A stretch of DNA of 64,000 nucleotides from NCBI GenBank assembly GCA_032718475.1, contig JAUCBJ010006629.1:71242-135241 (forward strand), given 5' to 3'. The stretch is from Nemertoderma westbladi (taxonomy: Eukaryota > Animalia > Xenacoelomorpha). Shown here piece by piece: positions 33,801-54,618 of this stretch. Every line of letters starts with the position of its first letter. Position 1 is the first letter of the stretch. Position numbers and translations under genes: made by a program. The notes under the pieces were generated by a model that saw only the letters and a program-made list of their open reading frames with translations, made no database searches and was not told the origin of the DNA.

Positions 33801-36800
33801 TGGACACCAATCCGTCGTCCATATAGAAGTTTCTCAAGATGGACTCGATTACTTCTACTGGGTACTTACCAATCTGGGCTGTTGCCGTTTTCTTTAGAAC
33901 GAACAGCGTGCCATTCGGACTATCGCGGGCGCCAAATATCCTAACGTACATTTGGTATGTAACCACTGGGCCGGATAAGTCTTCATTCTCAAACCAGAGA
34001 AATCGAAGGCTATCCTGGTCTGCCTTACAGGCTCTTACCTGGTGGAACATCGCCTCGATGTCACAAGTAAATGCGAATCGCCGCTGTCTAAAACGCAACA
34101 GTATTCCAATCAAATAGTTATTCAGGTTGGGACCATCCATCAACTCTGAATTCAGGGACATACCTCTATAGACTGCTGCGCAGTCGTTGACTACTCGGAC
34201 TTTGTCTGGCTTGTCAGGGTGAGTCACATAGTGGTGTGGAAGGTAATAAGTCTGGTCTGTCACTAAGTCAGGGTCCTCTACCTTCCCAGCAAATCCCTTG
34301 GCGAAATAGTTGTTGATCTGGGCGCAATACTTCTCCCTAATGTCCGGATTCTTCAACAACCGAGCCCTTACTCCGTTTAATCTTTTCAAGGCTAAGCTGT
34401 AGTTGTTCTCCAACTTAGGTGGTTGTCGACGCCACAACATTCCAACTTCAAAATGTCCAGTCGGTAGCAGACGTATGGTGTCTTCCATCATCTCCAGCGA
34501 CCGTTTCTCATCAGTAGACATGGCTAGGTCATATCCACCGGGTTCCATTGCGTCCCTATCCAGCCATTCGACGGTTCTGGCTCCTGTCTCGAGGTCCTGG
34601 CGTATCAATTCCTTCTGTAATTCCTCCTCACTGTATTGGAAAATGTCTAGGTCTCGATATTTAGCCACTTGACCCTCCACTATGTCTGTATAAGTCAAAA
34701 CGTTAGTCAGATAAGTAGCGTGGGCCGCTGAACCAGACCCACGGGTCTGATAACAGTAGTCCTCGGGTTCACTATCTGTCCGGTCGTTGTGAAGCGGTTC
34801 CGACAACCTAACATTATCGGGAATCAACTCCTCGTCCGACTCGCTAAAGTCACTATAGTGGTCAATACAGGTTCTCCTAAACTCGTCTATGTCTGGTGGT
34901 TCTACTAACGGTGGTTGAGTTATAGGCTGTAATTCATCGTATCTGTCCATTGGCTTGTCGCCACCTGTAAACTCATAAGACATGGGTACTCGTGTATACC
35001 AACCTAGTATGGTCCTATGGGCATGTGGTCCATTGACATGCGGCTCAGCTGGTCTCGTTTCCCATATCTGGTGTGCGATCAGCTGTTCTGCACCAATTAA
35101 CATAGAAACATTCCTATAACCTACCTGGTGTCTGGGTATCCTGAGCTTGTCAAAATACTCCTGTGCTATGGGACTCATCGGCGGCACCTTACCTAACTGC
35201 CTGCCGAATCCCTTCATAGCTAGACACTTAAATCCGTCCAATGGCAAAGCTTTCCGTTCTTGTCGAGTGTGTTGGTCTCTCGGAAGTAGGGAATCTAGTT
35301 CCACCGAAATTCTGTGTCCCTTGAGGTCTCCTACCCCATGCATAGACTTCAACTCTATTTGGATCTCCTCGGCGTCCTGGAAGCTAGAAACAGCTCTCGC
35401 CACTTCCTCGTCGATATAAGATAATGTGGACGCAGTGTCCAACATCAAATATATTCGCTTCGATCCCTTATCGCCAGTGAGTTTCACCGGAATCACGCTA
35501 AATATTTCCGACGTGGCCGATGATAAATACGTCCGCGCGCTGGTCGATGAACTATCCGCGGTGAAACCTTGGCAGGTCACTTCTCTCGCGCTCGACTCGC
35601 CATCCTCGTCCGACGAACCTGGTTGGTAACCATCGTCCTGGATGCCAGTGTACGTATTCCTCCTTATCGATACGGGTTCTTTGCTCCCCTTCCTTTGAGG
35701 ATTTCGCTGTAAGTAACGGTCCGTTGGGGTGTGGAAATCCGCATGTAGCAACTTGTGATGTAGTCTGCCGCATTCCATGCATCCGTCCTTGCTGTTCGGG
35801 CACTGCCGCCGTATATGACCTGGCGCAAGACATGCCCAACAGGTGTCCAACGTCCGCACTTGAACTCTTCTCTGTTCCGAATTTAATTCTTTGAACCGTC
35901 TGCAACTATCTAACTTATGGTCGTCAGATCTTACCTCCTTTAGTAAACAGTATTGGCAACCTACAAATCCATCCGGCAACTCCTGTTGCTTTAACCTAGG
36001 TCTATCTAACCGCTCACCTGACCATACTCGCGAGTCTGATCTAAAGGCTGGGGTACTCGAATTATATCTGTCTACTGAGTTAAATGTCACAGTGGTCCTA
36101 TCATCGTCAAAACTTACCATAGACTTACCGGTAACAGGTTTAGACTCCCTCATATTCTCTTCTGAGAAGTTTGATTTCATCTCTGCTACTGCGTCTGTGG
36201 CTATCATGTCATGAATATGCTGAAGTGTCAACACCTTACCTTGGCCCTCCAACTTATTCTCTAATTTGCGCCATTTCTGTCTGTAACGCATGTTTAAACG
36301 TCTTATTACGCTTTTCAAAACTTCGGCGTGATCACCATGATGAGGTAGATTCACCGTCCTCAAGATGTCCAATGCGTTCGAAATAGCGTTCGCTAAGTTC
36401 AACAGCTCTAACGGAGTTGTAATCCTTCCGCCCTTACCCAAGTCTTCTACTATCGACTGCGCCATCTTGGTTTTATTCCCGTAGATGTCACTAAGCGTCT
36501 TCATCGCTAACTCAAATGCTCTTTCATTGCCGACGAAATTATCAGCAATGGCTCTAGGTTCTCGATGGAGCATCTGAAGCAAATAGTTGAACTTTTCGTT
36601 GGGAGTAAAGGTGCTGTTGGTTAGCTGCTCGTCGACATAGGTTTTGAAGGTCCTCCAATGTTTATGGTTACCCATAAACTTCTGGGGTTGCTGCGTCGGC
36701 AGTCCTTGCCTAGCAGCAAACTTACCTATGTCCCTAAGGGTTGCGTCGTTCCGGGTTAACAAATGGTTTAGTTCCGCAGGGTTGTTAAGTCTGGTCCTTT

Positions 36801-37269
36801 CCCGGTGGTTCCAACTTACCTGCTCCGCGTCCGTCCTTCTTTCCTTATAGTTTCGGGACTTCTGACGTCTCATTTCTTCCTCTTCATCGCTTGACTCAGT
36901 GTCAGTCCTTAGCGCTCGCGATGGTTTGCGCGCCGAGGCCCTGCGCTTGCGTCCTTCTGGGCTCCTCTCTGATGACTCCGAGGCGCACCCATGAGGCGGA
37001 CGCTGTCCCACCACCCCTGGGGCCAGTCTGACTGATGTTATTATCAGACCGGGCCGGAGGGTGGCCCGATGCTTCCCGGGCTCTGTTTTCGGTCCCCCGA
37101 TCACACCGGCACAGCTCGTCGAACGTGTAGCCAGATGGGCGGCTACTGTCAACTTACTGTGGCCTGACTGTACATTGAGCCAACTCAGAGAGTCAACCGG
37201 CGGGTGGACCAGTCGATAGCGATCAAGCACCAAGGTCGCCCTTGGGCCTAACCGACGGTCTTGTCCCAA
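30850..37269 (-). CDS. pol: BEL/Pao Gag(core)-Pol polyprotein; true start uncertain
   Basis: DUF1759-like KFMGNHKHWRTF..EKFNYL, three Cys-His boxes, protease LDTAS, RT YMDD, RNase H HLFSDAS, integrase GVDCFGP/SDKGTNF/WERLVRSVK and C-terminal FWEYWREYYLP. Confidence 0.95.
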   Translation of the reverse strand: MGQDRRLGPRATLVLDRYRLVHPPVDSLSWLNVQSGHSKLTVAAHLATRSTSCAGVIGGPKTEPGKHRATLRPGLIITSVRLAPGVVGQRPPHGCASESSERSPEGRKRRASARKPSRALRTDTESSDEEEEMRRQKSRNYKERRTDAEQVSWNHRERTRLNNPAELNHLLTRNDATLRDIGKFAARQGLPTQQPQKFMGNHKHWRTFKTYVDEQLTNSTFTPNEKFNYLLQMLHREPRAIADNFVGNERAFELAMKTLSDIYGNKTKMAQSIVEDLGKGGRITTPLELLNLANAISNALDILRTVNLPHHGDHAEVLKSVIRRLNMRYRQKWRKLENKLEGQGKVLTLQHIHDMIATDAVAEMKSNFSEENMRESKPVTGKSMVSFDDDRTTVTFNSVDRYNSSTPAFRSDSRVWSGERLDRPRLKQQELPDGFVGCQYCLLKEVRSDDHKLDSCRRFKELNSEQRRVQVRTLDTCWACLAPGHIRRQCPNSKDGCMECGRLHHKLLHADFHTPTDRYLQRNPQRKGSKEPVSIRRNTYTGIQDDGYQPGSSDEDGESSAREVTCQGFTADSSSTSARTYLSSATSEIFSVIPVKLTGDKGSKRIYLMLDTASTLSYIDEEVARAVSSFQDAEEIQIELKSMHGVGDLKGHRISVELDSLLPRDQHTRQERKALPLDGFKCLAMKGFGRQLGKVPPMSPIAQEYFDKLRIPRHQVGYRNVSMLIGAEQLIAHQIWETRPAEPHVNGPHAHRTILGWYTRVPMSYEFTGGDKPMDRYDELQPITQPPLVEPPDIDEFRRTCIDHYSDFSESDEELIPDNVRLSEPLHNDRTDSEPEDYCYQTRGSGSAAHATYLTNVLTYTDIVEGQVAKYRDLDIFQYSEEELQKELIRQDLETGARTVEWLDRDAMEPGGYDLAMSTDEKRSLEMMEDTIRLLPTGHFEVGMLWRRQPPKLENNYSLALKRLNGVRARLLKNPDIREKYCAQINNYFAKGFAGKVEDPDLVTDQTYYLPHHYVTHPDKPDKVRVVNDCAAVYRGMSLNSELMDGPNLNNYLIGILLRFRQRRFAFTCDIEAMFHQVRACKADQDSLRFLWFENEDLSGPVVTYQMYVRIFGARDSPNGTLFVLKKTATAQIGKYPVEVIESILRNFYMDDGLVSKDTAEQAIEVAHGLQECLATGGFPLTKFTTNSEALLESFPVKDRGSGDIELGVEPIPMARVLGLAWNPNSDKFQVRVRFEPSSPDKVLTKRICLSTLSRLFDPMNFISPVILQARACMRKIWLSDLEWDEPISPIHAKQWREWEAELHLLNNIDVPRSYFPNQLVFPADLELHLFSDASDTGFGMVAYLRREVSQDKFETAFVTSRSKTMPVKYMTVPRAELQAAVVSVEVSKQITEELDTTLTLFYWTDASLVLVYIAADNNALKTFVANRRAQIVDFSTKEQWRHCPGVLNPADITSRGAMPAEFCREESQEFWLHGPDFLTRTQEHWPERLKIVTNPMPEDAEVKVEKVSKSKSKAKLKSLERPEESLERPEELLERPGDLSDQQTYVTTRSGRVSYDVKPPLQTRRQSQLVSDGQKMTDTMEPLVSKPAGLDSKLPLVRGQPSLALESCSIYDKLLNSSASWLTICKRTAWLSRYVSYLCLKHSKHLREPLSTNSERIRKLKRPLTEDEIDQAELKHLKHYQMCAFPKEFHLLSAHRPVLYKPLRKWSPLIHKGLICHRSRIQTVDINSQFRFPVIIPSHPIELQRAILWDIHKRLHHAGRLHCLSAARQRFILLQPSRAVGTMYDACLVCKRVNARVLEQEMAELPEARVQAYDPPFTNTGVDCFGPIEAKSGRLTHKRWGLLLTCMASRAIHIERVADMSTKSLLLALKRFMARRGLVKAFYSDKGTNFVGGNSELNAAHKAAQNKEISAALLPQRVEWRFNTPESPWRGGSWERLVRSVKQAIAKTLPVNKQLTDDELVTAFIEIEHTLNSRPIAMLPDGVALTPNHLLMQSPAFLVPASEPISADLYSRKSWKVTQLVAYTFWEYWREYYLPTISTRTKWYKTVRSLQRGDYVLITEPIVKRKYWETGVILHTHPDVQNIVRTVTVKIRCKCPHPKKCKTNGLHTLDRPVQDIVLLEETRIETGDYNLSPASKQS

Positions 37270-38123
37270 GTGGGCTTGTGCTACCCAACATGGAATATTG
37301 ACACGTTTTCACCCGCCTCGCCGGCAGTATTGAGGGGAAGTAAGTTCCACAAACAATACTGACTATCTCGAAAGCTAGGAACAAGTAACCACTTACCAGT
37401 CCTATACACGTGTACTCAACAGATGTTCACAATATCAAGTACACTACGGTAAACACAAAATCGGACACATACCATGCACACACAGAGGACATAATCGTGA
37501 AAGACAAAATCGGTGTCAAAATCGGGAGGGACTAGTTGTATCGACTTGAGAGAGAATGAGAAAGTCGAGAGTACTTTATTTTACCGACAAGGTAAAATAA
37601 CTTGTGTGCACAAAGTATGCTGGGGCGCAGTAAAGTATGGTCCTACTAATACCAGCGGCGTCTTGTCCAACCGGCAAGGTTTCCCATACTCACTCGCAGT
37701 GGCCACACATACAATCACGTGTACTCACATACCCACAGCAACAGAAAGCTCATCTCAGACCTAAACACACTCCAAAAACCAATCAGCTGAACATGGAGAC
37801 AATAACATATAGTATCAAAAAAAACGGAACAGCTGACGGTCAATGGCACACATCCAAGCCCCAAAGCTAACTGCCACTGCTCGCCCACATACAAATCACA
37901 GTTCATACCACATGAACCACAAATCACGCCATGCCACCACCCCTACTGTGTACAGGACTGGCAGTACGGCAACAGGCCGACTAGACGGTACCACGGCACC
38001 ATGTCGATTCATGGTTCGCTAGACACGAGGGCCTTCAGTATCTCCCTTGCACTTAGAGGAAGCATTTAACTTTAACGTGTCCCCAGACCCTCACGAGTCC
38101 GCCGCCGCCTGTTTTGGGCACAC

Positions 38124-40511
38124 TTATAGAGACCTCACCTCCTTAGGCACCCAAGCTTCCTCAATAAATCTTTCTGCCGAATTTTCGAAATTGGGATTAT
38201 GGATATTCGGGACAGGCGTCCTTACCTGAGGTCTATGTGGTATAGTCTCCTCCGATATGCGTACTCGTTGACTAGGCTGGACTTTATCTAACTCAGGCCT
38301 GCTAGGATTAGAATTACTTCTTACCTGGGCTGCTTCCTTTAACCGTAGGTTGCTAAGCATGTCCGTTATAGGTTGGATGTGCGGCGATATAGCTTGCGCT
38401 AAACTAGCACTTAACTCGTCCCTCGTAATAAATTCCTGGCTAGGGTTCTGTTGTATAGTCGGCTCTATCTGAGTAATCCGCTGTCTCTCATATGATCCCT
38501 CTTCCGGTTTAACCCGGAAGTTCTCCGTCGAACTGGGTCGGCGCTCCGTCCGCGTATTCCAAACCCGCGGGTTCGGTTCGCCAAGTACTCGTCCTGTCGG
38601 AGTTTCTTCTCTAAATTCTCCGTTCGCTCGTTCGGTGTATAGTGGTGCGGTGTTCCGATGACGTAGATCCTGGGCGATAGGTGAAGCACTAATACCAACT
38701 GGCGTGCGATATGTAGAGAACGGTTTAACGATCCGTGTACTCGTAATAGCTGGACCGGGTATAGGAATTCTGGTCGTCATTGACTCGCGTATAGTCGGAG
38801 TTCTCGCTTCCTGTTCGGCCTTCTGCAGTGCGAACAGTTCTCGCAACTCTGTCCCTACACTCGCCCCACATTCTTCGATCATTCGCATCCCCTTCTCGGC
38901 GATTTCATTCGCCTTCCTAGTCCGTTCTTCGCTCTCTAAACTTAATCTCGCACTTTCCAACTGCGCCAGTTTACGCTCTTCTTCTTCCCTCGCTCGTCTC
39001 GCTGCGCTCTCTTCTTCCACTCGCGCCTTTTCTTCATACAATGCGCGTCTTCTTTTCTCGATCTCGAGTTCGCGTTCCTTGCGTCCGCGTTCGAGTTGAA
39101 GCTCGCGCTCCTTCTGTTCACGATCGAGTTTCTTGCGCTCGCGTTCGGCTTGGAGTTCGCGTTTCTTCGCTTCCTGTTCGCGTTCGAGTTGGAGTTCGCG
39201 TTTCTTCGCTTCCCGTTCGCATTCAAGTTGGAGTTCGCGTTTCTTCGCTTCCCGTTCGCATTCGAGTTGGAGTTCGCGTTCTCTCTGTTCGCGTTCGAGT
39301 TCCTCGCGCTCGCGCTCGGCTTGGAGTTCACGTTCCCTTTGCTCGCGTTCCGCTCGCTCGCGCTTACTTATCTCTTCCAACTCTCGTAACTCTGCGTCCA
39401 ACTTACGTGTGCGCTCCCGTTCCCGCTCGGCTTCCTTCCGTGCTTCCTGTGCACGCAAAACTTCCGCCTGCTGTTCGTCTAGTCGGCGTCTTCTCTCCTC
39501 CGCCGAGTTGTGAGAAACAAGGGATCTAGCACATATTACCTTACCTCGCGCGTGACTAACCTGGGAATCGCCGCTGTCTCTAGATGCGTCGTCGGGTGGA
39601 GTCAACGTCCTCTGTTGAATGTTCTCCGTCGTCGGTAGCACCTGGCCTGGTACCACCACTCCATTCTGCATCAGCCAGCTAGTAACTTCCCTCTGATAAC
39701 GGCGCTCTTCCTTATCTTGGATCTCTTCTCGCTCCACTAACTCTCTCAACTCTGCGTCACTCACTTGAGTCGCCTGCGTTTGTGATGCCCATAGCAGCCA
39801 GTTCTCCGTCCTAACTCGTCGGAATCGCTCCGATAACTCGCGGTGCTCTAACAAGGCTGCTAAAACCCTGTCGTAAATCCTCGTTGCTACGTCGCTCGAC
39901 TGAGACTCTACTGCCTTCTTCGCTAGGACTGCAAGCTCCTCTGTCTGCTTGAATAACGCTGAGTTATATCCTCTTCTAATCTCTACTAACTCTACCCTCC
40001 CGATGTTCGCTGGGTCAGCTAACATCTTCCTTACCTTGTCCGCCGTCCGAGTTATATGTCCGGCATGCGCGCGAAGTTTCTTCTTTATCGCGATATCAAG
40101 TTCTCTCTCGCTTACCTGACTCACACTCGGTGGACTTGAAGGATTATTTCGGGAACTACGGGTACTCCTAACAGCCGTCGGGACCACGGCACTTACCATA
40201 CCCACAGGTCTGGAAACCGGGCTCCGGGCTCTCGCTTCTGCTACACTACCCTCCCTATCACTCACCTCTGTCCGGGTTGCTGTACAATCCTTCCTTACAG
40301 TAGCGGTAGGGGATCCTAATACTATTACCTGAGGCTGCTGTTCTTCCTCACTAGTCACTGTCTCGTCCTCCTGTTCACTTACGTCAGCGTCGCTCGCTGC
40401 GTCGTCATAGTCGGCATTGTCATCAACAGTAATATTTACGCTATCGTCAGTCGGCGGTCCAGCCGCCGTCTCATAGCTGTCCTCTAGTGCCTCTTTGTCT
40501 GAGACACTCAT
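38124..40511 (-). CDS. BEL ORF1 (795 aa): acidic N-terminus and long E/R/K coiled coil, Gag N-terminal-like
   Basis: ATG-initiated open frame downstream of the 5' LTR; tandem RELQLE(C/R)EREAKK repeats. Confidence 0.8.
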   Translation of the reverse strand: MSVSDKEALEDSYETAAGPPTDDSVNITVDDNADYDDAASDADVSEQEDETVTSEEEQQPQVIVLGSPTATVRKDCTATRTEVSDREGSVAEARARSPVSRPVGMVSAVVPTAVRSTRSSRNNPSSPPSVSQVSERELDIAIKKKLRAHAGHITRTADKVRKMLADPANIGRVELVEIRRGYNSALFKQTEELAVLAKKAVESQSSDVATRIYDRVLAALLEHRELSERFRRVRTENWLLWASQTQATQVSDAELRELVEREEIQDKEERRYQREVTSWLMQNGVVVPGQVLPTTENIQQRTLTPPDDASRDSGDSQVSHARGKVICARSLVSHNSAEERRRRLDEQQAEVLRAQEARKEAERERERTRKLDAELRELEEISKRERAEREQRERELQAEREREELEREQRERELQLECEREAKKRELQLECEREAKKRELQLEREQEAKKRELQAERERKKLDREQKERELQLERGRKERELEIEKRRRALYEEKARVEEESAARRAREEEERKLAQLESARLSLESEERTRKANEIAEKGMRMIEECGASVGTELRELFALQKAEQEARTPTIRESMTTRIPIPGPAITSTRIVKPFSTYRTPVGISASPIAQDLRHRNTAPLYTERANGEFREETPTGRVLGEPNPRVWNTRTERRPSSTENFRVKPEEGSYERQRITQIEPTIQQNPSQEFITRDELSASLAQAISPHIQPITDMLSNLRLKEAAQVRSNSNPSRPELDKVQPSQRVRISEETIPHRPQVRTPVPNIHNPNFENSAERFIEEAWVPKEVRSL

Positions 40512-41695
40512 AGTCTAAATAATATTTGCCTTCCGGCAAAAATCTCGCAAAAGTTCGAGATATAATTATAATTTAACCGAAATACGGTCAAATTATTTGT
40601 CAAATAATCAGTTGGTCCAAATGTCAAATAAATTCGCAATGCAATATTGTGAATTTAATGGGGTATATAGTTATAGCAAATACTAACACAATATTTAAAC
40701 AAAAAATATTATTATATAGCTACTATATAGTATTAAATACCGGTATAGCACAAAATAACTTTGAATCTAATACAAAATATTCAAAATAAACTTGCCACCC
40801 GAATATTTCTAATTTTATATATATAGCTCCAATCAACGTAATTTTAATTTCAAATATTATATGTATCCACTAGCGCGTGGCTACATCTTCGGGTTGCGAC
40901 TCTCTCTAACTCTCTCTCTAACTTGAGCGATTCAAAAAACCATGGCCGGCTAAACCTAAATATCCTAACTAATAAATTGAGTTCAGCTTCGCAGTTAAAC
41001 AACCGGTAATTTTTTACTGCTTCCACAAACACAGTGGTGCCAACAGAACAACTAACCTTGTTTGCTGTGAGATTCCACGTCCGCGTCCAAAGATTCAGGC
41101 CCTTCGCTGATTGCAAACCGAACCCGCAGACCCACACGAACCCCAAACTCAGAAGTTCCGTCTTGCCATGTATCTCCAGATGGTATAAAATAACTAAGCG
41201 GTTACCTAACATACCGGTACAAAACTCTAGAATTTTACAAAATAATTTTGACCGAAAACTGAATTCTCGCAAACCTAGCTAAAATTTTCAAAAAACTTAC
41301 TAATTACTGTTTGCCCTAAGGCCTAAGGAACTGCTGTATTCGCAATTAGCAAAACGCACTACCGTACATTCACTGTATGCAGCACAGTAAGTAAAACAGT
41401 ACACCAACCTAACAGCCTAATGATACTGTGTGTGGTACGGCAAACAAATGTCCTTCTACCGTCCGCAGTAACAACAATCAGCCTAATGTACTACTGTACT
41501 ATTGTACGCAGCCAGTGAATACAGTAATCTAAACTAACAGCCTAATAGAATAAATATACTCAATGTCTTACTGTACGCTAGCCTATAGCCTACAGCAGAC
41601 GATCACGTGCTCTAACTTATTACTTAATACTGTGATACTACTAATCAGCCTAAGAATACTCTATTGACTGTACGCTACAGCCTACAGCCAATAAA

Positions 41696-41706
41696 GCGCG
41701 TATTAC
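41696..41706 (-). other. Primer-binding-site position: GTAATACGCGC, non-tRNA and complementary to the LTR-internal 11-mer at 42746-42756
   Basis: Directly abuts the terminal CA of the 5' LTR; no TGG; exact 11-bp inverted repeat. Confidence 0.6.
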
Positions 41707-43835
41707 TGATAAACAACCGCGACCTCTATACTAACAGCAGAACTGTTGAACAGACCAATACCCGTTAATATCCTTCTGCCAACCTAATAAGTTCTCGTCT
41801 AACCAATAAGACACGAAGACTGCTCTACTGTTAAGTAAAGGGGCTCAGGAGCGTGATATTACTAAATTGTAAGGGTTGCTAAATACAAACCGCTACTTAC
41901 CGTTAGATGGCGCTAATCTGCCGTCCGCTAATATATTTTACTAAATTTACACAACTCCTGCAAAATCGCTTGTTCCTTTCTCTACCGATTGCTCGATAGA
42001 GAGCTAACTGTTCGAATCTATGAGCCACGCAGGAATAACCAAAACAATAAACCCGAGTCGGCTCCCTAAGCTTACTTAAGACGAGTGCGAGAGGCCTTGC
42101 ACTCAGAGTATTCTTACGCCTAATTTTATCACTATTAAAGCACGCTATTACCTACGTCTTTCTAATCGCGAATACTGGAGGTTCCCTAACGTAATGTGTG
42201 AATGCGAGAATATTTAAAATATCAAAATGGTACAGTATCTGTTTCTACGTGGATAATACCACTCCGAGTCTAAAACTGCCCGCGACTGGCTTTAGGCCAG
42301 CAAAATTACTAGCGTATCGTGCGTACCGAATAGTGCGTTCTAGCTGATTGCCCGCTAATGCAAATAACCGCTCAGCGTGAATAGTTTACAGTACACTAAT
42401 TATTACCTTAGCTACTCTCCGCTATGCTGCGTACTAATTCTTAATTTTTTACTAATTAATTACAGTCACAAATATTTAACAGCGTACTAATTACTAAGAG
42501 TTCCAGAATACGTAATTCTAATTTATCACGCAACAGGTTTCGCTAGTAATAGCCTAAATTGCCGTATTACTTTGACCTAATCAATAACTAATTATTGTAA
42601 CTAAGAAATAGAAATCAATCAAAGGAAAAAGAGCGCCTATCTAAGCATTCGTAATCTTAGGCACACTTCAATAACACACCAATCAGCGTTAGAAATCACA
42701 GTTTACAATTGTGCAATTCACTACTCGTACTCCACACTCAACGTTGTAATACGCGCAGGCCTCTCCCGGGTACATCTAGGATTCCTAACTAACCCAATTC
42801 CTGCCCCCCTAATACTAAATAGAGACAAAACCTGGATCATCAGCCCCCTAGATACTGTACCGGCGATCGGTCTGCGTGCCGCAGTGCAAGATACCCGCCC
42901 GCAACGGTGACCCTGGCCAGCGTTGCCCGCTTTGAATCCTCCGCTCTCTCCTAGTCGCTCAACCCCCCGATGCGCCCACCGCCCACTGGCACCTTAGCCC
43001 TCCATGATGCTAATAGCTACCGTAGCGGCGCATGCAAATCACAAAGTCTGACAGTCTCAGGAATCCCTTGGGATTATTGCGCAGAAAAGAATCACATAGA
43101 ACCATCAATCAAAGGTAGAAATCATAGTTCGATTGTAATTTGCAGTAATCGAAGGAATTATTGAGAAACACAAGCAAAGTAATCGCACTAGCAAATTATT
43201 CCAAGAAATTAATCAAAATTAGCAAATTGCAGAAAATACGATATCCTAATACAAAATTAGAGACAGCTCAGCAAGTAAATTGTAACAGGGGTGTGTCATG
43301 TGATAAGGCATGAACATATGAACAAATATATGAACAACAAAAAGCCCTACCGGCACACCGCCAATTTATAGGTGATCCGGATGGGGTGATGCAATAAGGT
43401 GACTCAATCGCTCTCCCATTGGCTCTCCAGTCCATGCTAGCATTAAACCAACCTGGAAGCAGTTAATCCAATAAGGAGACCGGATTGTAGCCCTATGCCC
43501 TCAAATTATTACCATATATGGTAATGGATCACGTCTCTGGCTGCTGAATGGCCAGGACAGCGTCCCTATATGCTAGCCCTATCAAACTAATATCAGCAAG
43601 CACAAAATCCAGGGTCCGAGTAAACTCGCTACCCTGGAACTATCTACATATATCCTAATACAAAATTACGTAGGTAGGGCTACATACTATACAAAATGAA
43701 TGGATGCAAAATATATGGGCGTTTTAACTTCCTTACCTAAATGTCACCACACTGCGCCTTATAATACTACATGGACTAATACTGCATACTGCATAATGGA
43801 CTAATACTGTGGATACAGCGCCATATACCGTAACA
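41707..43835 (-). repeat. 5' LTR (2129 bp)
   Basis: Sense TGTTACGG...TTTATCA; about 7 substitutions and 2 indels versus the 3' LTR. Confidence 0.97.
43330..43422 (-). promoter_or_regulatory. Candidate LTR promoter
   Basis: Sense CCAAT (43422-43418), AP-1-like TGAGTCA (43406-43400) and TATAAA (43370-43365). Confidence 0.45.
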
Positions 43836-43840
43836 CCAAT

Positions 43841-45064
43841 CTTGATACTGAAGGGGATATTGGGTTTTTCTTAATTTGCGATTTGAAATATCCCAAAGAT
43901 ATTCATGATCGTACATTAGAACTACCCTTAGCCCCAGAACATTTAAGTGTAAATGAGACAATGCTTTCACCATATATGAGGGAACAATATAACAATGTTT
44001 GTAAACAAAGAGGTACTAATAGCAAGTATAAGATGTGTACCCCAAAACTTATGTTGACACAATTCGATAAAGAATTCTATCATGTAAATTTGAAACTGTT
44101 AAAATTTTATATAAAACAAGGTTTAATTGTTACTAAGCTCCATAAATTATATTCTTTCCATCAAGACTTTGTATTTGAACCCTATATAGATTTTAATATT
44201 AATCAAAGGCGTTTAGCAAAAACGTATATTGAAACAGCTGTTGTGAAGCTTTTGAATAATTCGTTATTTGGAAAAACGATTGAAAAAATAAGAGACCGAT
44301 GCAACTTTCGTATCGCTAATAGTAAAGAGAAGTGCGATTTGTTGGTCAAACGTATAAATCACGAAAATTTCATGATTTATAACGATTCCTTATCGGGACA
44401 TTTATTAGTGAAAGACTCTGTAACTCTCGATAAGCCGGTCTATGTAGGTAGTACTGTCTTGGACTTGGCTAAATTGGATATGTATGAGTTGTATTACAAT
44501 AAATTGCTACCTATTGAGAAAGAATTAAACTGCCGAATTTAAATTGTAGCATCAGATACGGACTCTTTAATAGGTTGTTACTATAATACATCGCAGAATA
44601 ATTTTTTAAAAGCCTTAATTAAAAATAATATTCTAGATACATCCAATTACCCCAAGGATCACCCTCTCTACAGCGATAAAAATAAATCCAGGCTCTATTA
44701 CTGCAAAGACGAACTAGCCTCACGTGAAATTAAACAAGCGGTATTTTTAAGACCAAAATTATATTCAATTTTAGAATGGAATGAATCCAATATACGACGG
44801 GCGAAAGGAATAACAAGAGCTGTCGTGGATAAAAATATTTGCCACGAAGATTATTTGAGGGCATATTACGATAACGAAGAAATTTCTAAGGGGATGCACC
44901 AATTTCAGAGTAAATTACATAAGGTGTATACAGTAGCACGTGATAAGTTTGCTCTCAGCGCATTTGATGATAAACTTTATTGGGTTAATAAAAATCATTC
45001 GCTTCCCTGGGGTCACTATCAAACAAAGGTTGAAAAAGAAAAACAATATACCTATTTATCGTGA
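43841..45064 (+). pseudogene. polB: pPolB C-terminal part with in-frame TAA at 44540-44542
   Basis: Joins the N-part in frame (YLTN-LDTEGDIGFFLICDLKYP). Motifs KLLNNSLFGK, RI*IVASDTDS, DTSNYP, KDE, RPKLY, AKGI, LSAFDDK. Confidence 0.95.
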
Positions 45065-45072
45065 GCCAAACA

Positions 45073-45618
45073 ATGAACTATCAGATAGTCAATAAGAATG
45101 TAAGTTGCCAGCAAGTGTCAGCGATTAATTTTAAAAAATTAAAAAATCAATTATCTGGTAAACACATACTCAAACCAAATCAGTTTATATATAAGATATT
45201 TGGTGCCACATTATTAATATTTAAAAATGGTCATATTACATTATTAGGCAGTAAGTATAATTTCCAAAAAGTAAAAAAGCATATATTTGATAAAACTAGT
45301 ATTAATTTGATTTTAAAATCTGTTAATTTATGTACTTATATTTTTAGTATTAAGTCTGTAGTCTATAGGTTATTGATAAACAATACCGGGTTTTATGTTG
45401 TCTTTGATAATGTGCAACTTCAAGTTATATATGAACCTGAAATTTTTAATAATTGCAAAATAAGAATAAATCTTACCGTAATCATTTGCTGCTTTCATAC
45501 CGGTAAATGTACTTTAATGTGTTCACCTAGCAAATTTCATATTTATTACCCTATATTTAGTAAACTTGTTAATTATTTATTAATGTTTGGTGTTGTGACT
45601 TTAGGTGTTGGTGATTAG
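45073..45618 (+). CDS. TATA-binding-protein-like protein
   Basis: Two TBP-type half repeats: YQIVN...ATLLIFKNGHITLLGSK and IYEPEIFN...ICCFHTGKCTL, compared with TBP TALIFSSGKMVCTGAK and SYEPELFP...LIFVSGKVVL. Confidence 0.7.
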   Translation: MNYQIVNKNVSCQQVSAINFKKLKNQLSGKHILKPNQFIYKIFGATLLIFKNGHITLLGSKYNFQKVKKHIFDKTSINLILKSVNLCTYIFSIKSVVYRLLINNTGFYVVFDNVQLQVIYEPEIFNNCKIRINLTVIICCFHTGKCTLMCSPSKFHIYYPIFSKLVNYLLMFGVVTLGVGD

Positions 45619-45704: not shown

Positions 45705-47005
45705 CGGGTTGACTGCGTGCCTAGCTGCGTGGCTGGCTGGCTGACTGCATGACCGACCGCGAGGCTGGCTGCGTGCCGCGAGGCTGACTGCGTGCTGCGA
45801 GGCTGCTGCGTGCCGCGAGGCTGGCTGCGAGGCTGGCAGCGATGCTGCTCTGACTGCGTGGTTGACCGCATCCCATGACTGCGTACACATCTGATTATAT
45901 CCGACTCACGATATTGTATACAATGACTTAGTTTGTTACTGCGGGTGCTGTTACATTAATACGGTGGTACCGGTACCGTACTGCAGTACAATGCTAATCA
46001 AAGGAAATCAGTATGCTCTATCTGATTATACTGTTACATCAAGAACAGTGACAGTACTGCAGTACTGTATTGTTTGGGTAGGGGATCTAATCCCTATATG
46101 TGAGACTCCTGCATGTAATCTAGGTTATGACAGCAGTATGCTAATCAAGGTTCGGGTAGACAGCAGTATCCTTATAGGTGAAAAAAACAAATGCTATTGC
46201 ATCAGATTACTGCTGTACTGATAAAGTGGATGACAGTTGTGGATAGGAGCTGCGAGGTTGACCGCATCCCCGCAACGTGGCTGACTGCATACACATCTGA
46301 TTGTAACTAGCTCACGATATTGTATACATTGGTTTAGTTTGTTACTGCAGGTACTATCGTACCGGTACTGCAGTACGATGCTAATCAAAGGAAATCAGTA
46401 TGCTCTATCTGATTATGCTGTTACATCAAGAACAACGACAGTACTGCAGTACTGTATTGTTTAGGTAGGGGATCTAATCCCTATATGTGAGACCCCTGCA
46501 TGTAATCTAGGTTATGACAGCAGTATGCTAATCAAGGTTCGGGTAGACAGCAGTATCCTTATAGGTGAAAAAAAAAACAAGTGCTATTGCATCAGATTAC
46601 TGCTGTACTGATAAAGTGGATGACAGTTGTGGATAGGAGCTGCGAGGCTAGCTGTGAGGTTGACTGCATCCTCGCAACGTGGCTGACTGCGTACACATCT
46701 GATTGTAACTAGCTCACGATATTGTATACATTGGTTTAGTTTGTTACTGCAGGTACTGTCGTACCGGTACTGCAGTACAATGCTAATCAAAGGAAATCAG
46801 TATGCTTTATCTGATTATGATGTTACATCAAGAACAGCGACAGTACAGCAGTACTGTATTGTTTGGATAGGTGATCTAATCCCTATATGTGAGACCCCTG
46901 CATGCATCAGATTACTGCTGTACCGATACCACTAGACAGAAACTACAGTGTTGGAAGAGTAAAACACTACCGGTACTGATAAAGTGGATGACAGTTGTAG
47001 ATAGG
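45705..47005. repeat. Polinton internal non-coding repeats: short GCGAGGCTG(G/A)CT units then ~2.8 copies of a ~400-bp unit
   Basis: TACACATCTGATT at 45884, 46290 and 46692; ORFs 46194 and 46584 are near-identical by-products. Confidence 0.9.
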
Positions 47006-47961: not shown

Positions 47962-48417
47962 TTACAAAGTTTGTTGGTTTAATTTATAATAATTAACAAG
48001 CCAATTATATAATATTATTTCATTTATTTCCACATTATTTGTAAACGCACTCATTGGATAGTTTGTGTCAATTCGATTTACTAAGTAATAGAGACAGTAC
48101 AGACCGCATGTGGTCCTCCTGGGGTCTTGAAATTGTTTGCGGGTAGTACGCCATCTTGCGGAATTTTTCTCAAGCCATTTTTCGATACATCTGTTTGGAT
48201 ATTTTGGTCCAAACGAGTCAAATACTTCAGCTTCATTATCTCGTATATATATAGCAATCCAATGAACCCCGGGTAGATGCTGTTTATCGGTGTTTACTAT
48301 TAAACCATAATCTCTCCGCTTATTATTATTATCTAATTTAGGTAATTTGTTAGCTGGAAACGCTCCCAAATAGTGACCACCCACTGGAAACATATCAAGG
48401 TCCTCTGTAGATAACAT
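47962..48417 (-). CDS. Adenain-like cysteine maturation protease
   Basis: VNTD...GVHW, FDSFG, Q...TTCGLYC (His-Asp-Gln-Cys). Confidence 0.93.
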   Translation of the reverse strand: MLSTEDLDMFPVGGHYLGAFPANKLPKLDNNNKRRDYGLIVNTDKQHLPGVHWIAIYIRDNEAEVFDSFGPKYPNRCIEKWLEKNSARWRTTRKQFQDPRRTTCGLYCLYYLVNRIDTNYPMSAFTNNVEINEIILYNWLVNYYKLNQQTL

Positions 48418-48419
48418 AC

Positions 48420-49679
48420 TTAATCGATATGTATTTCTTTCCTGCTATTTAAACTTAATGATTGATCATAAATATTAAAAACGATTACATTTATGGTCTC
48501 AACCAGCGGTTCGGCAAATCTTAATTTTAATTGTCCGTTAGTATATATCGAGGGTTGCGGATCTCTAACATAACCGTCGGCTGTTAGGTCCCAGGATAGG
48601 AGGAGGCAATTACCTAAGTAGGTTTCATGGTCTATATTATTTCCCCCATAACCGTTAATATATGTATTAATGTTCTTCATTAATTGTGTATACTCAAAAA
48701 TATAAGTTCCGTCTGTAAAATTAGGCTCGTATATTACACCTCCTACAGGAAGACCGTCTACAATCAGTTCCGCGCGTCTAAGGTTAAAATGTTCAAATTT
48801 CAATGGGTTACTAATTAATTCTCCTGAATAAGCGTTATTTGTTATGAAGCCAATAATAACTAATTTGGGTTTTTTACCATCAAATATGTTTGTTTGGGTG
48901 TAATTTGTGGTTTGAGCGGGAATAGTAAATGTAGTCACCTCTTTCTTTTGGAATTGATATTCAATATCGTAACTCTCTAAACCTTTTAGGTGACTGCTTT
49001 CTATTACCGGATTAACCTCCATTCTAGGGATTAGGATCTTTAATTCATCTAATTCTAGCCGAAGATTTGTCACGGCATTTGCGTTTGGAGTGATTTTAAA
49101 AATAAACGAATTTGATACTTTTCTAAAATGCATTCTTAAATCATACCCAGGTTGTATTATTTTACTTTCAGTATCAAAATCAATCGTCAACCCACTTACA
49201 AATTGCATTTGTTTACTAAAGGCATCGTCAATAGGATGCGTGCCGGGGTCAATTTCATTTCCATGTTCAGACAAAGGTTGTTGAAAACCACCCGCCCCCA
49301 GTAACCCGTTTTTATCCTCGTAAGTTGTAAATAATAAATTGGATAAGTACGACTTGTAGAAATAATGGTTATTGCTATTTTCAACCTGCTTCTCATTAAG
49401 GTCTATTTTAATATCACTCCACATAGTTTCAGCGGGGTAATTCAGCATATATATATGAGAGTTTTCAAGTCGCCTATCCCAGCGTACAGTACATTTTGTA
49501 ATTAATAACGCATCTTGCAGTTTCGTATAGAATTCATTGGATCTTGGGACAAGGAACGTGACCTCCCTAGATTCACTTCGGAGATTGGATACTGGGTAAA
49601 TTGTTTCATAATGCTTTGCTTTAAATTCAGTCTGTATTGGCTGTGTAGAAAATAAATCTAATTCCTTAATAATTGACAT
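48420..49679 (-). CDS. Major capsid protein (double jelly-roll, PY/hexon-like)
   Basis: 419 aa; ELDLF..QPIQT, YFYKSYLSNLL, IFDGKKPKLVIIGF, NPLKFEHFNL, WDLTAD, LRFAEPL. Confidence 0.9.
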   Translation of the reverse strand: MSIIKELDLFSTQPIQTEFKAKHYETIYPVSNLRSESREVTFLVPRSNEFYTKLQDALLITKCTVRWDRRLENSHIYMLNYPAETMWSDIKIDLNEKQVENSNNHYFYKSYLSNLLFTTYEDKNGLLGAGGFQQPLSEHGNEIDPGTHPIDDAFSKQMQFVSGLTIDFDTESKIIQPGYDLRMHFRKVSNSFIFKITPNANAVTNLRLELDELKILIPRMEVNPVIESSHLKGLESYDIEYQFQKKEVTTFTIPAQTTNYTQTNIFDGKKPKLVIIGFITNNAYSGELISNPLKFEHFNLRRAELIVDGLPVGGVIYEPNFTDGTYIFEYTQLMKNINTYINGYGGNNIDHETYLGNCLLLSWDLTADGYVRDPQPSIYTNGQLKLRFAEPLVETINVIVFNIYDQSLSLNSRKEIHID

Positions 49680-50246: not shown

Positions 50247-51092
50247 TTAATTTATTCGTTTAAAGTGTAAGGTAATACAAGTTGTCCCGTATTCAAAATT
50301 CAAATCTTTTCCTTGTTTGTCTGTTATTTCAATATGAATGTATGTTATCTTATATGATTTTTTTACAGGGATATAATGAATTGTATCCTTGGCAAATTCT
50401 TTATTTATTACGCTACCATATTTCACGTCATCAGGTATCGCCACGCGACGAAGTAAAGCTAAACCAAATTCATTAATATATTGATTTTCAATTATATTAG
50501 TAGTCACGTACATGTTCGACTTAGGTTCTGGAATAGAGTTGGGAGGTTGAGGGCATAAAAATACCATCTGGTAAGATTTTTCTTCATTTCCGATAACCTT
50601 TATTAAATAACCCTTTATGTTATTTTTCGTCTTCAAAATAATTTTAAAATTTGGATTTAAATTCGCGCCGAGATTATTTTCAGTAATTCCAAAATAATAG
50701 GCTAATTGTTGACCTATAAATAACTCTCGCACAGTTTTCCCTAAAATAAATTGCAACCTATTTTGCTGAGTATTTTCAACTATTTGTAATTTATCTTTCA
50801 ACGCCCCAGTGTTAAAATAATCTATAATGTCATTGATACTGTAGAACAAGCCGGATGGAAGTGTATCCTCAAAATTTTTTTTTCCTTTTTTTAATAAAAT
50901 AACATTCTCTACATTGTTATACATGGACGGCAACGTAGCTAAGTAAAATATACTTTTTATACCTACCACCCAGTTTTCGTTTGGATTTATAGGTAAGGCA
51001 CCGTGAAAATTGATTTGATAATTACTGGCGTTATTGCGAGGAAAATCAATTGGACATGAGTTACTCGGCAGCCTTACGTAGAATTCATCCAT
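50247..51092 (-). CDS. Minor capsid/penton-like protein 1 (PX-like)
   Basis: FYVRLPSNS...NNASNY, WVVGI, MYVTTNIIE, LLRRV, YIPV, ITDKQG, TLHFK. Confidence 0.85.
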   Translation of the reverse strand: MDEFYVRLPSNSCPIDFPRNNASNYQINFHGALPINPNENWVVGIKSIFYLATLPSMYNNVENVILLKKGKKNFEDTLPSGLFYSINDIIDYFNTGALKDKLQIVENTQQNRLQFILGKTVRELFIGQQLAYYFGITENNLGANLNPNFKIILKTKNNIKGYLIKVIGNEEKSYQMVFLCPQPPNSIPEPKSNMYVTTNIIENQYINEFGLALLRRVAIPDDVKYGSVINKEFAKDTIHYIPVKKSYKITYIHIEITDKQGKDLNFEYGTTCITLHFKRIN

Positions 51093-51957
51093 CGCTACCA
51101 CCACGTATTAACTTAAGTGTTACAACAGTGCGACCTCCGTTGAAGTTAATTAGTTGCCCCTGTCCGTCACGTAAAGTAATTAATATTGTTTTTAGTTTTT
51201 TATTCAACAAAGGATAATAGCAAATGCTCTCGTATTCGTGATTAATATATTTTCGATTTAATTGCGTTAAAGGACAGGTTCTTAAGAGCGGTGCTAAAGC
51301 GTCGCCAACAAATGAGCTCTCAATAATATCTGTATATATGAAGATTGTATTTTTATTACGTGTTATATTCGTGGGATTAGGAAAATCTAAAATGCCAATT
51401 TCTGAAATTTTTGGTCCGCTATAATTTAAAATTAATATTGGCTGTTCTATATTGCTTAATTCATCTACTGTAGTGGTACTGTATATATCCCAATTCGGAA
51501 TATCCGGATGATTCTGATCCAATAACGGTTTTAAGCCTAGAATTTGTATTAAATCACCGCGGAGACTTAATTGTATTTTTTTCAACTTTTTAGGAAATTT
51601 AAATTTAATTCTAGAATTATTTGTATAAAAAATGAATTCGAAATCTCTATATTTCGCTTCAGAATTAAACAGTTTATTTATATCATCAATAATGACTTGA
51701 ATAGAGTTATGCATACCAGGAAATAAACTGAATAATTTAGCATCTTTTGCATCGACGCCGATTGACAGCGAGATTTGAGTTTGCAGCGTAATATTACTGT
51801 ATGTTGCTTGATATTGAAGTTCGGCAAGACCAATTTTGGCGTTTGGACCAATATATAATTCTTCGGCTAAATCAACAGTAAACTCGCTAGGATTATTATT
51901 GGGGTAAGTGCTTAATGAACTATCTGACAGTAGAGTGATATATGTATCTGTGGCCAT
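51085..51957 (-). CDS. Minor capsid/penton-like protein 2 (PX-like paralog)
   Basis: YITLLSDSS..YPNNNPSEF, IGLAEL, IFIYTDIIE..VGD..APLLR, YYPL, LRDGQG. Confidence 0.85.
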   Translation of the reverse strand: MATDTYITLLSDSSLSTYPNNNPSEFTVDLAEELYIGPNAKIGLAELQYQATYSNITLQTQISLSIGVDAKDAKLFSLFPGMHNSIQVIIDDINKLFNSEAKYRDFEFIFYTNNSRIKFKFPKKLKKIQLSLRGDLIQILGLKPLLDQNHPDIPNWDIYSTTTVDELSNIEQPILILNYSGPKISEIGILDFPNPTNITRNKNTIFIYTDIIESSFVGDALAPLLRTCPLTQLNRKYINHEYESICYYPLLNKKLKTILITLRDGQGQLINFNGGRTVVTLKLIRGGSDG

Positions 51958-52194: not shown

Positions 52195-53283
52195 TTATTG
52201 AATGTGTTGCACCCAAGACTGTTTCTTGGATCCGATGAATCGGACTAAATATTCTTTCTTCCCATTGCGCACACGTTCTTTAAGTTTGCCAATATTTTTG
52301 TCAATCGGAAGATAAATATTACTGTTCGGGTGGACCTTTTGGAGTTCGTATGAATAAAATGAGCCTTTTATTATAGCTCCAGCGCTGTCCTTAATATCGA
52401 ACATTACCGCTGGTACTCTATCCAATCTAACACGATGAATAATAAATAATTCACGTGTCCATTGTTCTCGATAGCCTTTAGCAAAAGCAGTACGGGCGAT
52501 AGATAATCGTACTGTATCTCTAACTTTAAATTTTATTTTCTTGTGATTTATCTGTCTATATTTCCCATATAATCTATTCATTAATTCAGTTTCATTAAAT
52601 TTATTAACTTCAATGGGTGTCATTTTTATTGTTCTATGATACGACCTATTATAAGCTGAGATAAGCTTAGGTAAAATTTTTATCCAAACATTATTTCCCC
52701 TCTGAGTGAAAATTTTGAACATCTTTGTTTTTAATGTGCGATTGAATCTCTCAACAATAGCCGCCTTATTCACAGAGTACATTACGTAATACTGTATACC
52801 TAACGTATCTAAATATTTCCTTACAGATTTATTTAGAAACTCAGAACCTTGATCCGTGGCGATTCTCTTTGGTTTACCCTTTTGGAATATTTTTTGCAAT
52901 ATACTAATAATCTCAATACCTGTTTTTGTTTTCATACCATAGCCAAAAGCAAGCCGACTGAAGGCATCAATGCACGTCAATATATAGTTATAATTATTAT
53001 TTTGCGATTTATATTGCTGCATATCCACCAAATCTATCATATATATATCTTTTAACCCTCCCGTAAATATTTTAGATGTTGGATAATGTTGTCTACGTGG
53101 TGCGTGAAGGGTGTATGTATTTTGCCCGCTCAACCATTTCTGGGCTTGAGCTGGTTTGATGTTTGCGGCTTTTGCTAATTTTGCGACACTTGCAAATCCC
53201 GCAGGAGATGAAGGATCTAAATAAATTCTTGACAGTTTTTTGTCTAAGCTTCGAGTTAAAATCGGTTTCATCTTGCGAGGCAT
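52195..53283 (-). CDS. Retroviral-like (rve) integrase with C-terminal chromodomain-like tail
   Basis: DDE motifs IDLVDM / TDQGSEF / VERFNRTLK; YNRSYHRTIKMTP; EYLVRFIG...SWV. Confidence 0.95.
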   Translation of the reverse strand: MPRKMKPILTRSLDKKLSRIYLDPSSPAGFASVAKLAKAANIKPAQAQKWLSGQNTYTLHAPRRQHYPTSKIFTGGLKDIYMIDLVDMQQYKSQNNNYNYILTCIDAFSRLAFGYGMKTKTGIEIISILQKIFQKGKPKRIATDQGSEFLNKSVRKYLDTLGIQYYVMYSVNKAAIVERFNRTLKTKMFKIFTQRGNNVWIKILPKLISAYNRSYHRTIKMTPIEVNKFNETELMNRLYGKYRQINHKKIKFKVRDTVRLSIARTAFAKGYREQWTRELFIIHRVRLDRVPAVMFDIKDSAGAIIKGSFYSYELQKVHPNSNIYLPIDKNIGKLKERVRNGKKEYLVRFIGSKKQSWVQHIQ

Positions 53284-53516: not shown

Positions 53517-53900
53517 TTACCGTCTACGGTTAATTTTTTTCGCAATAGCCGCTCCAGCGGCAGCGGCCCCCGCACTCGCGGCAAGTTTCGCACCAATGCC
53601 GAGTAAGGGTATTAGAAACGGAAGTATGCCTCCAGATTGATTGCTTAACTTTTTTCTGTAACTTGATATATTTTTTGTCTTACGGTTGAGGGATTTCAAT
53701 ACCTTCTTATATCGCCGAATATTTCTAAATGAATGCGGGGTCAATTGTACGTTACCATTTAGAACATTTAATGCGGTATTTACAATGAGCCGTATTAATT
53801 CGTTACTGGCGGTATGGTTAATAAAATAAGTTCTTTGTTGAGGGGTAGCGCTGCGTAGAAATTCCAGTTCGTTTCGATATTTCTGCACAAGTCTATTCAT
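53517..53900 (-). CDS. Conserved Polinton virion-associated protein (PM-like)
   Basis: ALNVLNGNVQLT...YK..L..L, then QSGG followed by hydrophobic ILPFLIPLLG. Confidence 0.7.
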   Translation of the reverse strand: MNRLVQKYRNELEFLRSATPQQRTYFINHTASNELIRLIVNTALNVLNGNVQLTPHSFRNIRRYKKVLKSLNRKTKNISSYRKKLSNQSGGILPFLIPLLGIGAKLAASAGAAAAGAAIAKKINRRR

Positions 53901-53940: not shown

Positions 53941-54618
53941 TTAATTATTATTATTATTATTATTTTCGCTACGTTTATAGTCAATGTAATTTTTAATGTA
54001 ACAATTATGATTACGAAATATATCCGATCTAAATCTTAAATGTTCGGGTGTTTCCTGCCGTAAATCAATTAAGAAATGTGAAAATGGCTCAATTGTTGCA
54101 TCTTGATAAGAATCAACTAAAAATTTGGTCTGCCCTGGTAACATTTGCTTCGCGAAATTTAAAACCGATAGACTGTCTCTTGGATTTTTCATTAATACTA
54201 AAGTATGGCTATTAATTGATCTTGTGCGGTTATGCTTCCCACCGTAAAACATGTTTTGCGTTATAAAACAAATAAATATATTGGAATGATGAGCTACCTT
54301 AGTAAACAATACAGTTAATGCTGTACTGGACTCAGTTTCTGTTAACAAATCATCTATAATTAATAAATCTCGACTATTCACTAAAGTATCTATATTTTCA
54401 GGCAAGCCTTTGTAAAGGTGAGTAATACCAGGAATAGTTGGTGGATTGCTCCCGTAACAATATAATACTCGCAAGGGGGCTTCGTTGAAGCAGCCATTCT
54501 TGTGTTTAATTAAATTCCCCACAAAGGTTGACTTTCCGGAACCAGATGGGCCAGAAATTATCATACTTGTTCCCATTTGAAAGTTTAAATTATATGGGCC
54601 TGAATTAAAGTCAGCCAT
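53941..54618 (-). CDS. A32/FtsK-type DNA packaging ATPase
   Basis: Walker A GPSGSGKS, Walker B LLIIDD, ITQN, KNPRD. Confidence 0.95.
   Translation of the reverse strand: MADFNSGPYNLNFQMGTSMIISGPSGSGKSTFVGNLIKHKNGCFNEAPLRVLYCYGSNPPTIPGITHLYKGLPENIDTLVNSRDLLIIDDLLTETESSTALTVLFTKVAHHSNIFICFITQNMFYGGKHNRTRSINSHTLVLMKNPRDSLSVLNFAKQMLPGQTKFLVDSYQDATIEPFSHFLIDLRQETPEHLRFRSDIFRNHNCYIKNYIDYKRSENNNNNNN

Follow-up and report, generated by a model that had tools for sequence, protein, structure and literature searches.

Within a 64,000-nucleotide window of Nemertoderma westbladi DNA (contig JAUCBJ010006629.1, positions 71,242 to 135,241), a Polinton/Maverick element carries, directly behind its DNA polymerase gene polB, an open reading frame (ORF) that sequence comparison identifies as encoding a two-lobed, strongly diverged member of the TATA-binding protein (TBP) family, belonging to the Polinton family itself. 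The gene (45073..45618, + strand; 181 aa, pI 9.7) was assigned from a Pfam TBP match above cut-off, a shuffle test, a structure model with its Foldseek matches, and composition. We think it likely, with a probability of roughly 55%, that the product is a viral promoter-binding factor, predicted to bend AT-rich DNA and to recruit host TFIIB and Pol II to the virion genes.

The 181-codon frame is open at 45073-45618 (+), and the terminal TGA of polB ends at 45064, exactly 8 nt before its ATG, as a first-pass annotation of this DNA had described; the two motifs quoted there, LLIFKNGHITLLG (residues 47-59) and YEPEIF...CFHTGKC (residues 120-146), are both present. The Pfam TBP family PF00352 matches the protein in two stretches with 32.2 bits (E 9.6e-8; curated cut-off 22.9). 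The proposed division into two TBP-like halves also held, in that residues 1-76 (E 2.6e-4) and residues 77-181 (E 5.9e-3) each match PF00352 alone, with scores individually below the curated cut-off. With a local TBP profile that draws on 10 archaeal and 2 giant-virus TBPs, the protein scores 23.1 bits over two domains; none of 2,000 shuffles exceeds 9.3, and its reversed sequence scores -1.0. Pfam TBP is carried by 30/30 of the nearest clusters in the ESM Atlas (best 0.95), with a recognition value of 1990, below the tool's mark of 2300, and profile-profile comparison with 15 archaeal TBPs is weak (probability 19.6%, E 0.0012). Identity to TBPs is only ~20%, which accounts for the lack of relatives in single-sequence searches: 0/60 candidates matched at E<=0.001 and likewise at E<=10, phmmer against the PDB recovered no TBP, and a search of viral and metagenome contigs returned no relative. 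An NCBIfam scan of the protein gave 0 families. The protein is a TBP-family member and is neither a canonical TBP nor a herpesviral vTBP.

Residue numbering was transferred from yeast through a giant-virus TBP whose residues 9-180 pair with yeast 66-237 without any difference in length. Among the functional labels, F116, E284/E286, E188, V213, and T215 come from papers, and F99/F190/F207, N69/N159, and P191 are in part the customary yeast TBP labels. Like cellular TBPs (PF00352; yeast 1ytb, human 1cdw, archaeal 1mp9), the protein has two lobes, F-x-x-G turns, and a YEPE stirrup. The N-terminal lobe (45079..45258, +; residues 3-62) contains N7, F38, F50, G53, and G59, and the core of the C-terminal lobe (45418..45543, +; residues 116-157) contains the stirrup with E121 and E123 as well as F125, F141, and G144. 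Retained relative to yeast are N7 (N69), L48, F50 (F116), G53, G59, K61, F125 (F190), F141 (F207), G144, and the run Y120-E121-P122-E123 (Y185-E188). The L5.1 phenylalanine is therefore present in both lobes, as F50 and F141 (yeast F116 and F207). F38 aligns to yeast F99 only with a 3-residue gap directly behind it, so that the fourth intercalating phenylalanine is ambiguous in register. Both C-lobe glutamates that contact TFIIB (human E284/E286) are kept as E121 and E123 and are acidic in variant copies; they make up 2/5 of the acidic residues of a protein with 21 K+R and 5 D+E.

Unlike cellular TBPs, the protein is encoded by a mobile element, and its N-lobe stirrup and strand 3 are shorter by 5 residues. 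Helix H2 of the N-lobe is ~8-10 residues shorter, with a gap of ~10 residues at its start, and positions 133 and 135 have no counterpart. The DNA face is more polar: V71 is replaced by N9, V122 by T56, T124 by L58, P191 by N126, L205 by C139, V213 by T147, T215 by M149, and G216 by C150, so that five hydrophobic minor-groove positions (the equivalents of V71, V122, P191, L205, and V213) are now N, T, N, C, and T. The register is uncertain over residues 76-115; there, yeast N159 aligns to S95 in MAFFT, with N85 as an alternative by eye.

The stretch is present in 5/7 listed sequencing runs, and four runs from four studies were compared. Variant contigs number 526 in one run and 271 in another, and these hundreds of contigs point to a multi-copy family; adding up their depth does not yield the number of copies. 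One run holds a 364-bp contig with 8 differences and a 650-bp contig with 51/293 (~83% identical), the latter carrying the polB 3' end (85 letters) together with the TBP-like ORF; because both lie on this one contig, the adjacency of polB and the TBP-like gene extends to a second subfamily. We pooled at least 33 differences within the ORF, 25 from 40 of 97 rows of one comparison and 8 new ones from 12 rows of another. Among the differences listed, 19/33 fall at third codon positions (p 0.004), none creates a stop, and 11/27 changed codons are silent compared with 19% expected (p 0.008). In the same set, N7, F38, F50, G53, Y120, P122, E123, F125, F141, and G144 are unchanged, and the one change at E121 stays acidic. 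There are no insertions or deletions within the ORF among these differences; one contig (depth 12.5) has a 3-letter gap over 45067-45193. Taken together, the pattern argues with moderate strength that the TBP-like gene is under purifying selection.

In the mechanism that we favor, the TBP-like gene would be expressed early together with polB, as suggested by the 8-nt gap and by an ATTAAA at 45628, 10 nt past the TBP stop. The phenylalanines would bend AT-rich DNA, and host TFIIB would be loaded through E121/E123. The shortened H2 and the cut N-terminal stirrup may allow escape from TFIIA/Mot1/TAF1-type control, and the polar DNA face may shift sequence preference toward viral promoters. No TFIIB family matched among the element's ORFs in Pfam or NCBIfam, although a remote one is possible among the four ORFs without a family. 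Because the acidic stirrup is kept and no viral TFIIB was seen, direct use of host TFIIB is predicted. This departs from the pattern described in parts of the literature on viral TBPs, where the TFIIB contacts are lost and an own TFIIB is present (PMC7221094). A selected, element-encoded TBP-like factor would make the timing of Polinton capsid genes, and a real viral cycle, testable with one small protein.

Most large double-stranded DNA viruses with a TBP also encode their own polymerase, unlike the ~19-kb Polinton, which shows no polymerase of its own for transcription. The TBPs of Nucleocytoviricota and other large double-stranded DNA viruses resemble the Polinton protein in being divergent, in keeping the L5.1 phenylalanine, which marks TATA-type binding, and in losing the N-lobe regulatory signature; they differ in that almost all TBP-bearing viruses examined carry their own TFIIB, whereas none is seen in the Polinton (viral features from passages of PMC7221094). 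The same passages state that two C-lobe glutamates bind TFIIB and that the first is kept in ~40% of viral TBPs. No relative by sequence emerged among them: TBPs on viral contigs reach a best phmmer score of 15.5 bits to the Polinton protein (25/26 loci with a TBP ORF extracted). A second comparison is to ORF24 of KSHV (Kaposi's sarcoma-associated herpesvirus) and its beta- and gammaherpesvirus homologues, which share a viral TBP fold, kept phenylalanines, a polar DNA face, and dependence on host Pol II, and for which a late-gene role has been proposed in the sections available of PMC12529657. According to the same sections, ORF24 depends on its TBP-like phenylalanines, and its DNA face is polar, which makes it a precedent for binding re-specified to a variant box. 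But it is a large protein of several domains, among them a Pol II-binding N-domain and a CTD, works within a viral complex of six members, does not have the TFIIB glutamates, and is modelled as TFIIB-incompatible. The Polinton protein is, in contrast to ORF24/UL87, a bare 181-aa predicted saddle with the glutamates kept, and no partner families are found among the element's ORFs.

Several observations weigh against a promoter-binding role, the case for which is built from sequences and models. First, phmmer with the 181-aa protein found no relative among 1.84 billion representatives or in a 5.8-billion set. Second, many conserved TBP features are gone: the MAFFT register shows neither PG motif, no C-lobe TGAK, and no second Asn, and of 41 strongly conserved columns (at least 80% among 23 reference TBPs) the protein keeps only 17, the first Met included. 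Third, the structure models are of mixed quality. AlphaFold2 on a TBP-seeded alignment gives a TBP topology with a predicted local distance difference test (pLDDT) score of 67.8, but being seeded with TBPs, this model is circular and only shows compatibility with the TBP saddle. Its pLDDT is 77-92 over residues 11-80, 56-73 in the C-lobe core (residues 116-157), and <50 at residues 82-92 and 103-109, so that 82-109 is poorly modelled. Foldseek with it returned 44 PDB matches at E<=0.001, and all 40 that were listed are TBPs (TM 0.48-0.61, root-mean-square deviation 4.7-7.2); viral TBP-like proteins were matched in BFVD. The single-sequence AlphaFold model has a pLDDT of 38.5 and no Foldseek match at E<=0.001; its highest-probability row (0.72, E 0.17) is RNase H3 4py5, and RNase H3 is named as a relative of a single TBP lobe in part of PMC7221094. 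Fourth, the argument for purifying selection comes from a pooled and partial listing of differences.

Fifth, Polintons make capsids without a TBP. The comparison took in 82 Polinton loci found by capsid alignment, with 443 kb and 3,877 ORFs in all: 2 viral contigs and the top 80 among 521 metagenome matches. These loci are mostly partial, and their capsid cluster is only 20-29% identical to the element's own. A TBP-like ORF occurs in 0/82 of them, the best E being 0.42 versus 5e-6 for the element's own gene in the same search, in agreement with the earlier statement that TBP lies outside the core Polinton genes.

Finally, there is no convincing shared promoter for the TBP-like protein. The first-pass annotation had pointed to (TAA)n leaders of the capsid cluster as its targets. 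Such runs are real before some ATGs but find no support as binding sites: they abut the ATG, and several supply the stop codon of the upstream gene, where tightly packed genes join stop to start. In 7/11 minus-strand genes here and in 69/427 ORFs of other Polinton loci, a TAA stands no more than a few bases from the ATG. Of the two sites it had singled out, 54620-54680 has ATATTG and TAA repeats but no TATA element, and 55960-56000 does contain a canonical TATATAA (55978..55986, - strand), ~100 nt ahead of a 141-aa ORF that is not a capsid gene. Canonical TATA boxes stand ahead of this 141-aa ORF, the RING ORF, and polB, where host TBP could read them, and such boxes number 14 in the element's intergenic DNA compared with 6.7 expected (p 0.014). 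On the sense strand, none precedes the ATPase or integrase gene, where TATACA variants occur at -128, -87, and -29 instead. In the DNA that precedes the ATPase gene (54698..54775, -), the candidate boxes of non-canonical sequence, chosen post hoc and weak, are TATACATA at -87, TATACAGT at -128, and TACAGTA at -158. TATACA was considered as a shared promoter word and is unconvincing, with 5 intergenic copies observed versus 2.0 expected (p 0.046) and rank 104/990 among hexamers.

The strongest word is the quasi-palindrome TAC[A/T]GTA, which has 18 copies (12 sense, 6 antisense) in the 9.2-kb virion module, or 1.96 per kb; TACAGTA alone has 12 copies there versus 0.76 in shuffles. Per kb, the left arm has 0.18 copies, the host flanks 0.33-0.47, the retroelement that interrupts polB 0.60, and the 82 other Polinton loci 0.14, so that the word is ~5x denser in the virion module (47358-56535) than in host flanks. 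Several facts speak against a promoter function: 8/12 sense copies lie within coding sequence, 400-850 nt from the next start; the word is found in either orientation; it doubles as the target site of the Polinton itself and belongs to the 35-bp unit of a host tandem array; and most other copies of the element do not keep the occurrence upstream of the TBP gene. We therefore treat TAC[A/T]GTA as a weak candidate for a promoter box, a lead rather than a finding.

A more specific version of the promoter-binding role is that the protein acts as a one-gene switch: its polar saddle would read a non-canonical box, with ATACAGTA, a word concentrated in the virion module, as the candidate, and the kept glutamates would load host TFIIB. 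This version is speculative, and we regard it as doubtful. If it is true, the protein is a natural, minimal re-specified TBP that would run an early-to-late program without a viral TFIIB, polymerase, or co-activator complex, and, at 181 aa, a compact probe of TATA recognition.

Four other explanations compete with promoter binding. First, the protein could be a decoy or competitor, which the first-pass annotation had also raised: it would soak up host TFIIB/Brf or occupy host TATA boxes and thereby damp host (defense) transcription. The TFIIB-contact glutamates are among its best-kept features while the DNA face has drifted much, and the want of a clear viral promoter motif would fit as well. 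But TFIIB binds the TBP-DNA complex, and a decoy would need to bind DNA anyway. Moreover, the surfaces that would titrate Mot1, TAF1, and NC2 are those that are shortened (surfaces as given in part of PMC7221094), and characterized viral TBP-like proteins, in the portion of PMC12529657 available, activate viral late genes. We consider a decoy unlikely, and the kept acidic stirrup favors a late-transcription role through host Pol II, itself plausible, over a pure decoy.

Second, the protein could play an architectural role, bending DNA in or close to the termini and so aiding protein-primed replication or integration. In both subfamilies its gene belongs to the replication module and follows pPolB after a gap of 8 nt, and the protein is very basic, as its composition above attests. 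Host NFI and Oct-1 serve adenovirus in such a terminal role. There is, however, no TATAWAW in either terminal inverted repeat (TIR) and no TAC[A/T]GTA in the right one, and the TFIIB-contact glutamates would be needless, so that this role seems to us quite improbable.

Third, the protein could recruit the Pol III factors Brf1/Brf2, or generally boost ordinary TATA promoters with its specificity unchanged. Brf1/2 use the same C-lobe glutamate (from part of PMC7221094), and the enrichment of canonical TATA in intergenic DNA is what a booster would exploit. Yet the basic N-lobe helix, which Brf1 requires as well, is shortened here, and the five minor-groove positions turned polar speak against unchanged specificity; we give either form of this explanation little credence. 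The last, a decaying captured copy of a host TBP without function, would fit the ~20% identity, the many invariant residues lost, and the dead polB of this copy, but is largely refuted and very improbable, in that the intronless frame is open across copies down to ~83% identity with an excess of silent changes and no stops, and the losses spare the Phe and Glu signatures.

By the survey of 82 mostly partial loci, the TBP-like gene is lineage-limited among Polintons, which does not imply that it is unique. Among the 82 comparison loci, 10 hold the end of polB, and in 8/10 the ATPase follows directly. Conversely, 0/26 TBP loci on viral contigs adjoin Polinton genes. In print, a 'TBP' label appears in the legend of Fig. 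5 of Starrett et al. 2021 (PMC8502044), for MELD viruses with an adintovirus-like PolB. These resemble the present case in that a Polinton-like element of middle size bears a TBP-like gene, and we compare them by that legend label only, which stands in a section on non-animal datasets without analysis. It is the only mention of a TBP in Polinton-like elements that we found in the text available; subscription journals, Repbase, and further supplements may hold more. One supplement of PMC8502044 has no mention of TBP, and TBP/TATA terms are absent from the main texts of PMC10748475, PMC11161782, PMC8097293, and 10.64898/2026.06.19.733378, and from the main text and one small supplement of PMC11131425. 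The transcription factor known from some Polintons, in the portion seen of PMC11131425, is VLTF3, and TBPs are mentioned in mirusvirus-related elements in a passage of PMC10675990. Viral TBPs are an already known kind, a TBP label for a Polinton-like element is already in print, and the gene described here is not categorically new. Two of the contigs surveyed have unusual genes of their own: a Polinton-like viral contig (locus L128, 510-3317) encodes a PolB of 1868 aa and three minor-capsid-like ORFs in tandem, and a giant-virus-type contig (locus L121, 869-2566) encodes a 566-aa protein with a TBP-like N-terminal part followed by repeated basic motifs.

The element that carries the gene spans 18091-57039 and measures ~18.9 kb without its retroelement insert. 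Its TIRs of ~490 bp start with AGTAGT and are flanked by a perfect 6-bp duplication, TACAGT. The left TIR (18091..18579, +) begins AGTAGT, with the target duplication before it, and the right TIR (56536..57039, -) is 99% complementary over 393 nt, with the duplication after it. Such ends, (AG)3 or (AGT)2 with a 6-bp target duplication, define Mavericks in the part consulted of PMC8097293. As in other Polintons/Mavericks (adintoviruses), the element has pPolB, an rve integrase, a packaging ATPase, an adenain-type cysteine protease, and capsid genes including the major capsid protein; unlike in those elements, a TBP-like gene lies between pPolB and the virion module. The plus strand holds two ORFs without a family, then pPolB, then the TBP-like gene. 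By eye, a PC4-like motif can be made out in one ORF ahead of polB (292 aa, 19603-20481); a local PC4-like profile derived from other Polintons did not recover it, and we do not retain that identity.

The polB of this copy is dead: it is split by a 20-kb insert, has an in-frame stop, and is preceded by a frame-shifted zinc-finger ORF. The 5' part (21202..23787, +), cut by the retroelement, has a weak endonuclease VII match (E 0.42) and matches the intact PolB of another locus (L127) by BLASTP at E 2e-62. The 3' part (43836..45064, +), with the in-frame stop at 44540-44542 and the terminal stop at 45062-45064, has matches, at E 1e-6 to 1e-38, to the C-terminal ends of PolB from 10 other Polinton loci. 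Pfam DNA_pol_B_2 had no match in pPolB in the Pfam and NCBIfam scans. The short zinc-finger-like ORF (21033..21170, +), read by eye, lies in another frame directly ahead of polB and is likely its detached N-terminus. The insert is a BEL/Pao long terminal repeat (LTR) retroelement (23785..43835, -) of 20 kb, with LTRs of ~2.1 kb that are 97.8% identical and a 5-bp target duplication. It is unusually long, with a 2007-aa gag-pol and two long minus-strand ORFs (26386-30093, 1235 aa; 38124-40511, 795 aa) that have no convincing Pfam match.

A non-coding repeat spacer (45757..46904) separates the convergent replication and virion modules. It consists of ~400-bp imperfect direct repeats and a GC-rich 19-bp array and could be a repeat that inserted here or else serve as origin or terminator. 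The virion-side genes are all on the minus strand. The adenain-type protease (47962..48417) matches Pfam Peptidase_C5 with 24.9 bits (cut-off 21.3), and the major capsid protein (48420..49679) has 45 homologues (best E 4e-43), two of them named capsid or major capsid protein and some of them coral proteins. Two putative minor capsid ORFs (50247..51957; 290 and 281 aa), without a Pfam match, are so called from position and look. The retrovirus-type integrase (52195..53283) matches Pfam rve with 44.3 bits (cut-off 32.6). Below cut-off are the matches of a 127-aa ORF with a pX-like C-terminus (53517..53900; Adeno_PX E 0.013), of the packaging ATPase (53941..54618; Pox_A32 E 0.002), which has a P-loop and matches ATPases of other Polinton loci, and of a RING-finger-like ORF (54835..55287; zf-RING_2 E 0.005). 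Between the pX-like gene and the integrase lies a small basic ORF of ~58 aa (53335-53523), with a (TAA)n run before it, possibly a core protein.

The Polinton sits where a host tandem array of 35-bp units (12 copies, 17668-18091) ends, and the unit continues for a few bases past the element's right end. Gene content suggests that this host is probably an animal, given a ROCO-CARD gene in the flank, the BEL/Pao element, and the coral homologues of the capsid protein. Farther to the left, 4309-11400 holds ~7 kb of 42-bp tandem repeats with a strong G-skew, open as a 2334-aa minus-strand ORF (4393-11397). Adjoining the right side of the Polinton is an intronless 1150-aa Roc-COR-CARD (ROCO) gene (57696-61148), likely a gene of innate immunity or apoptosis.
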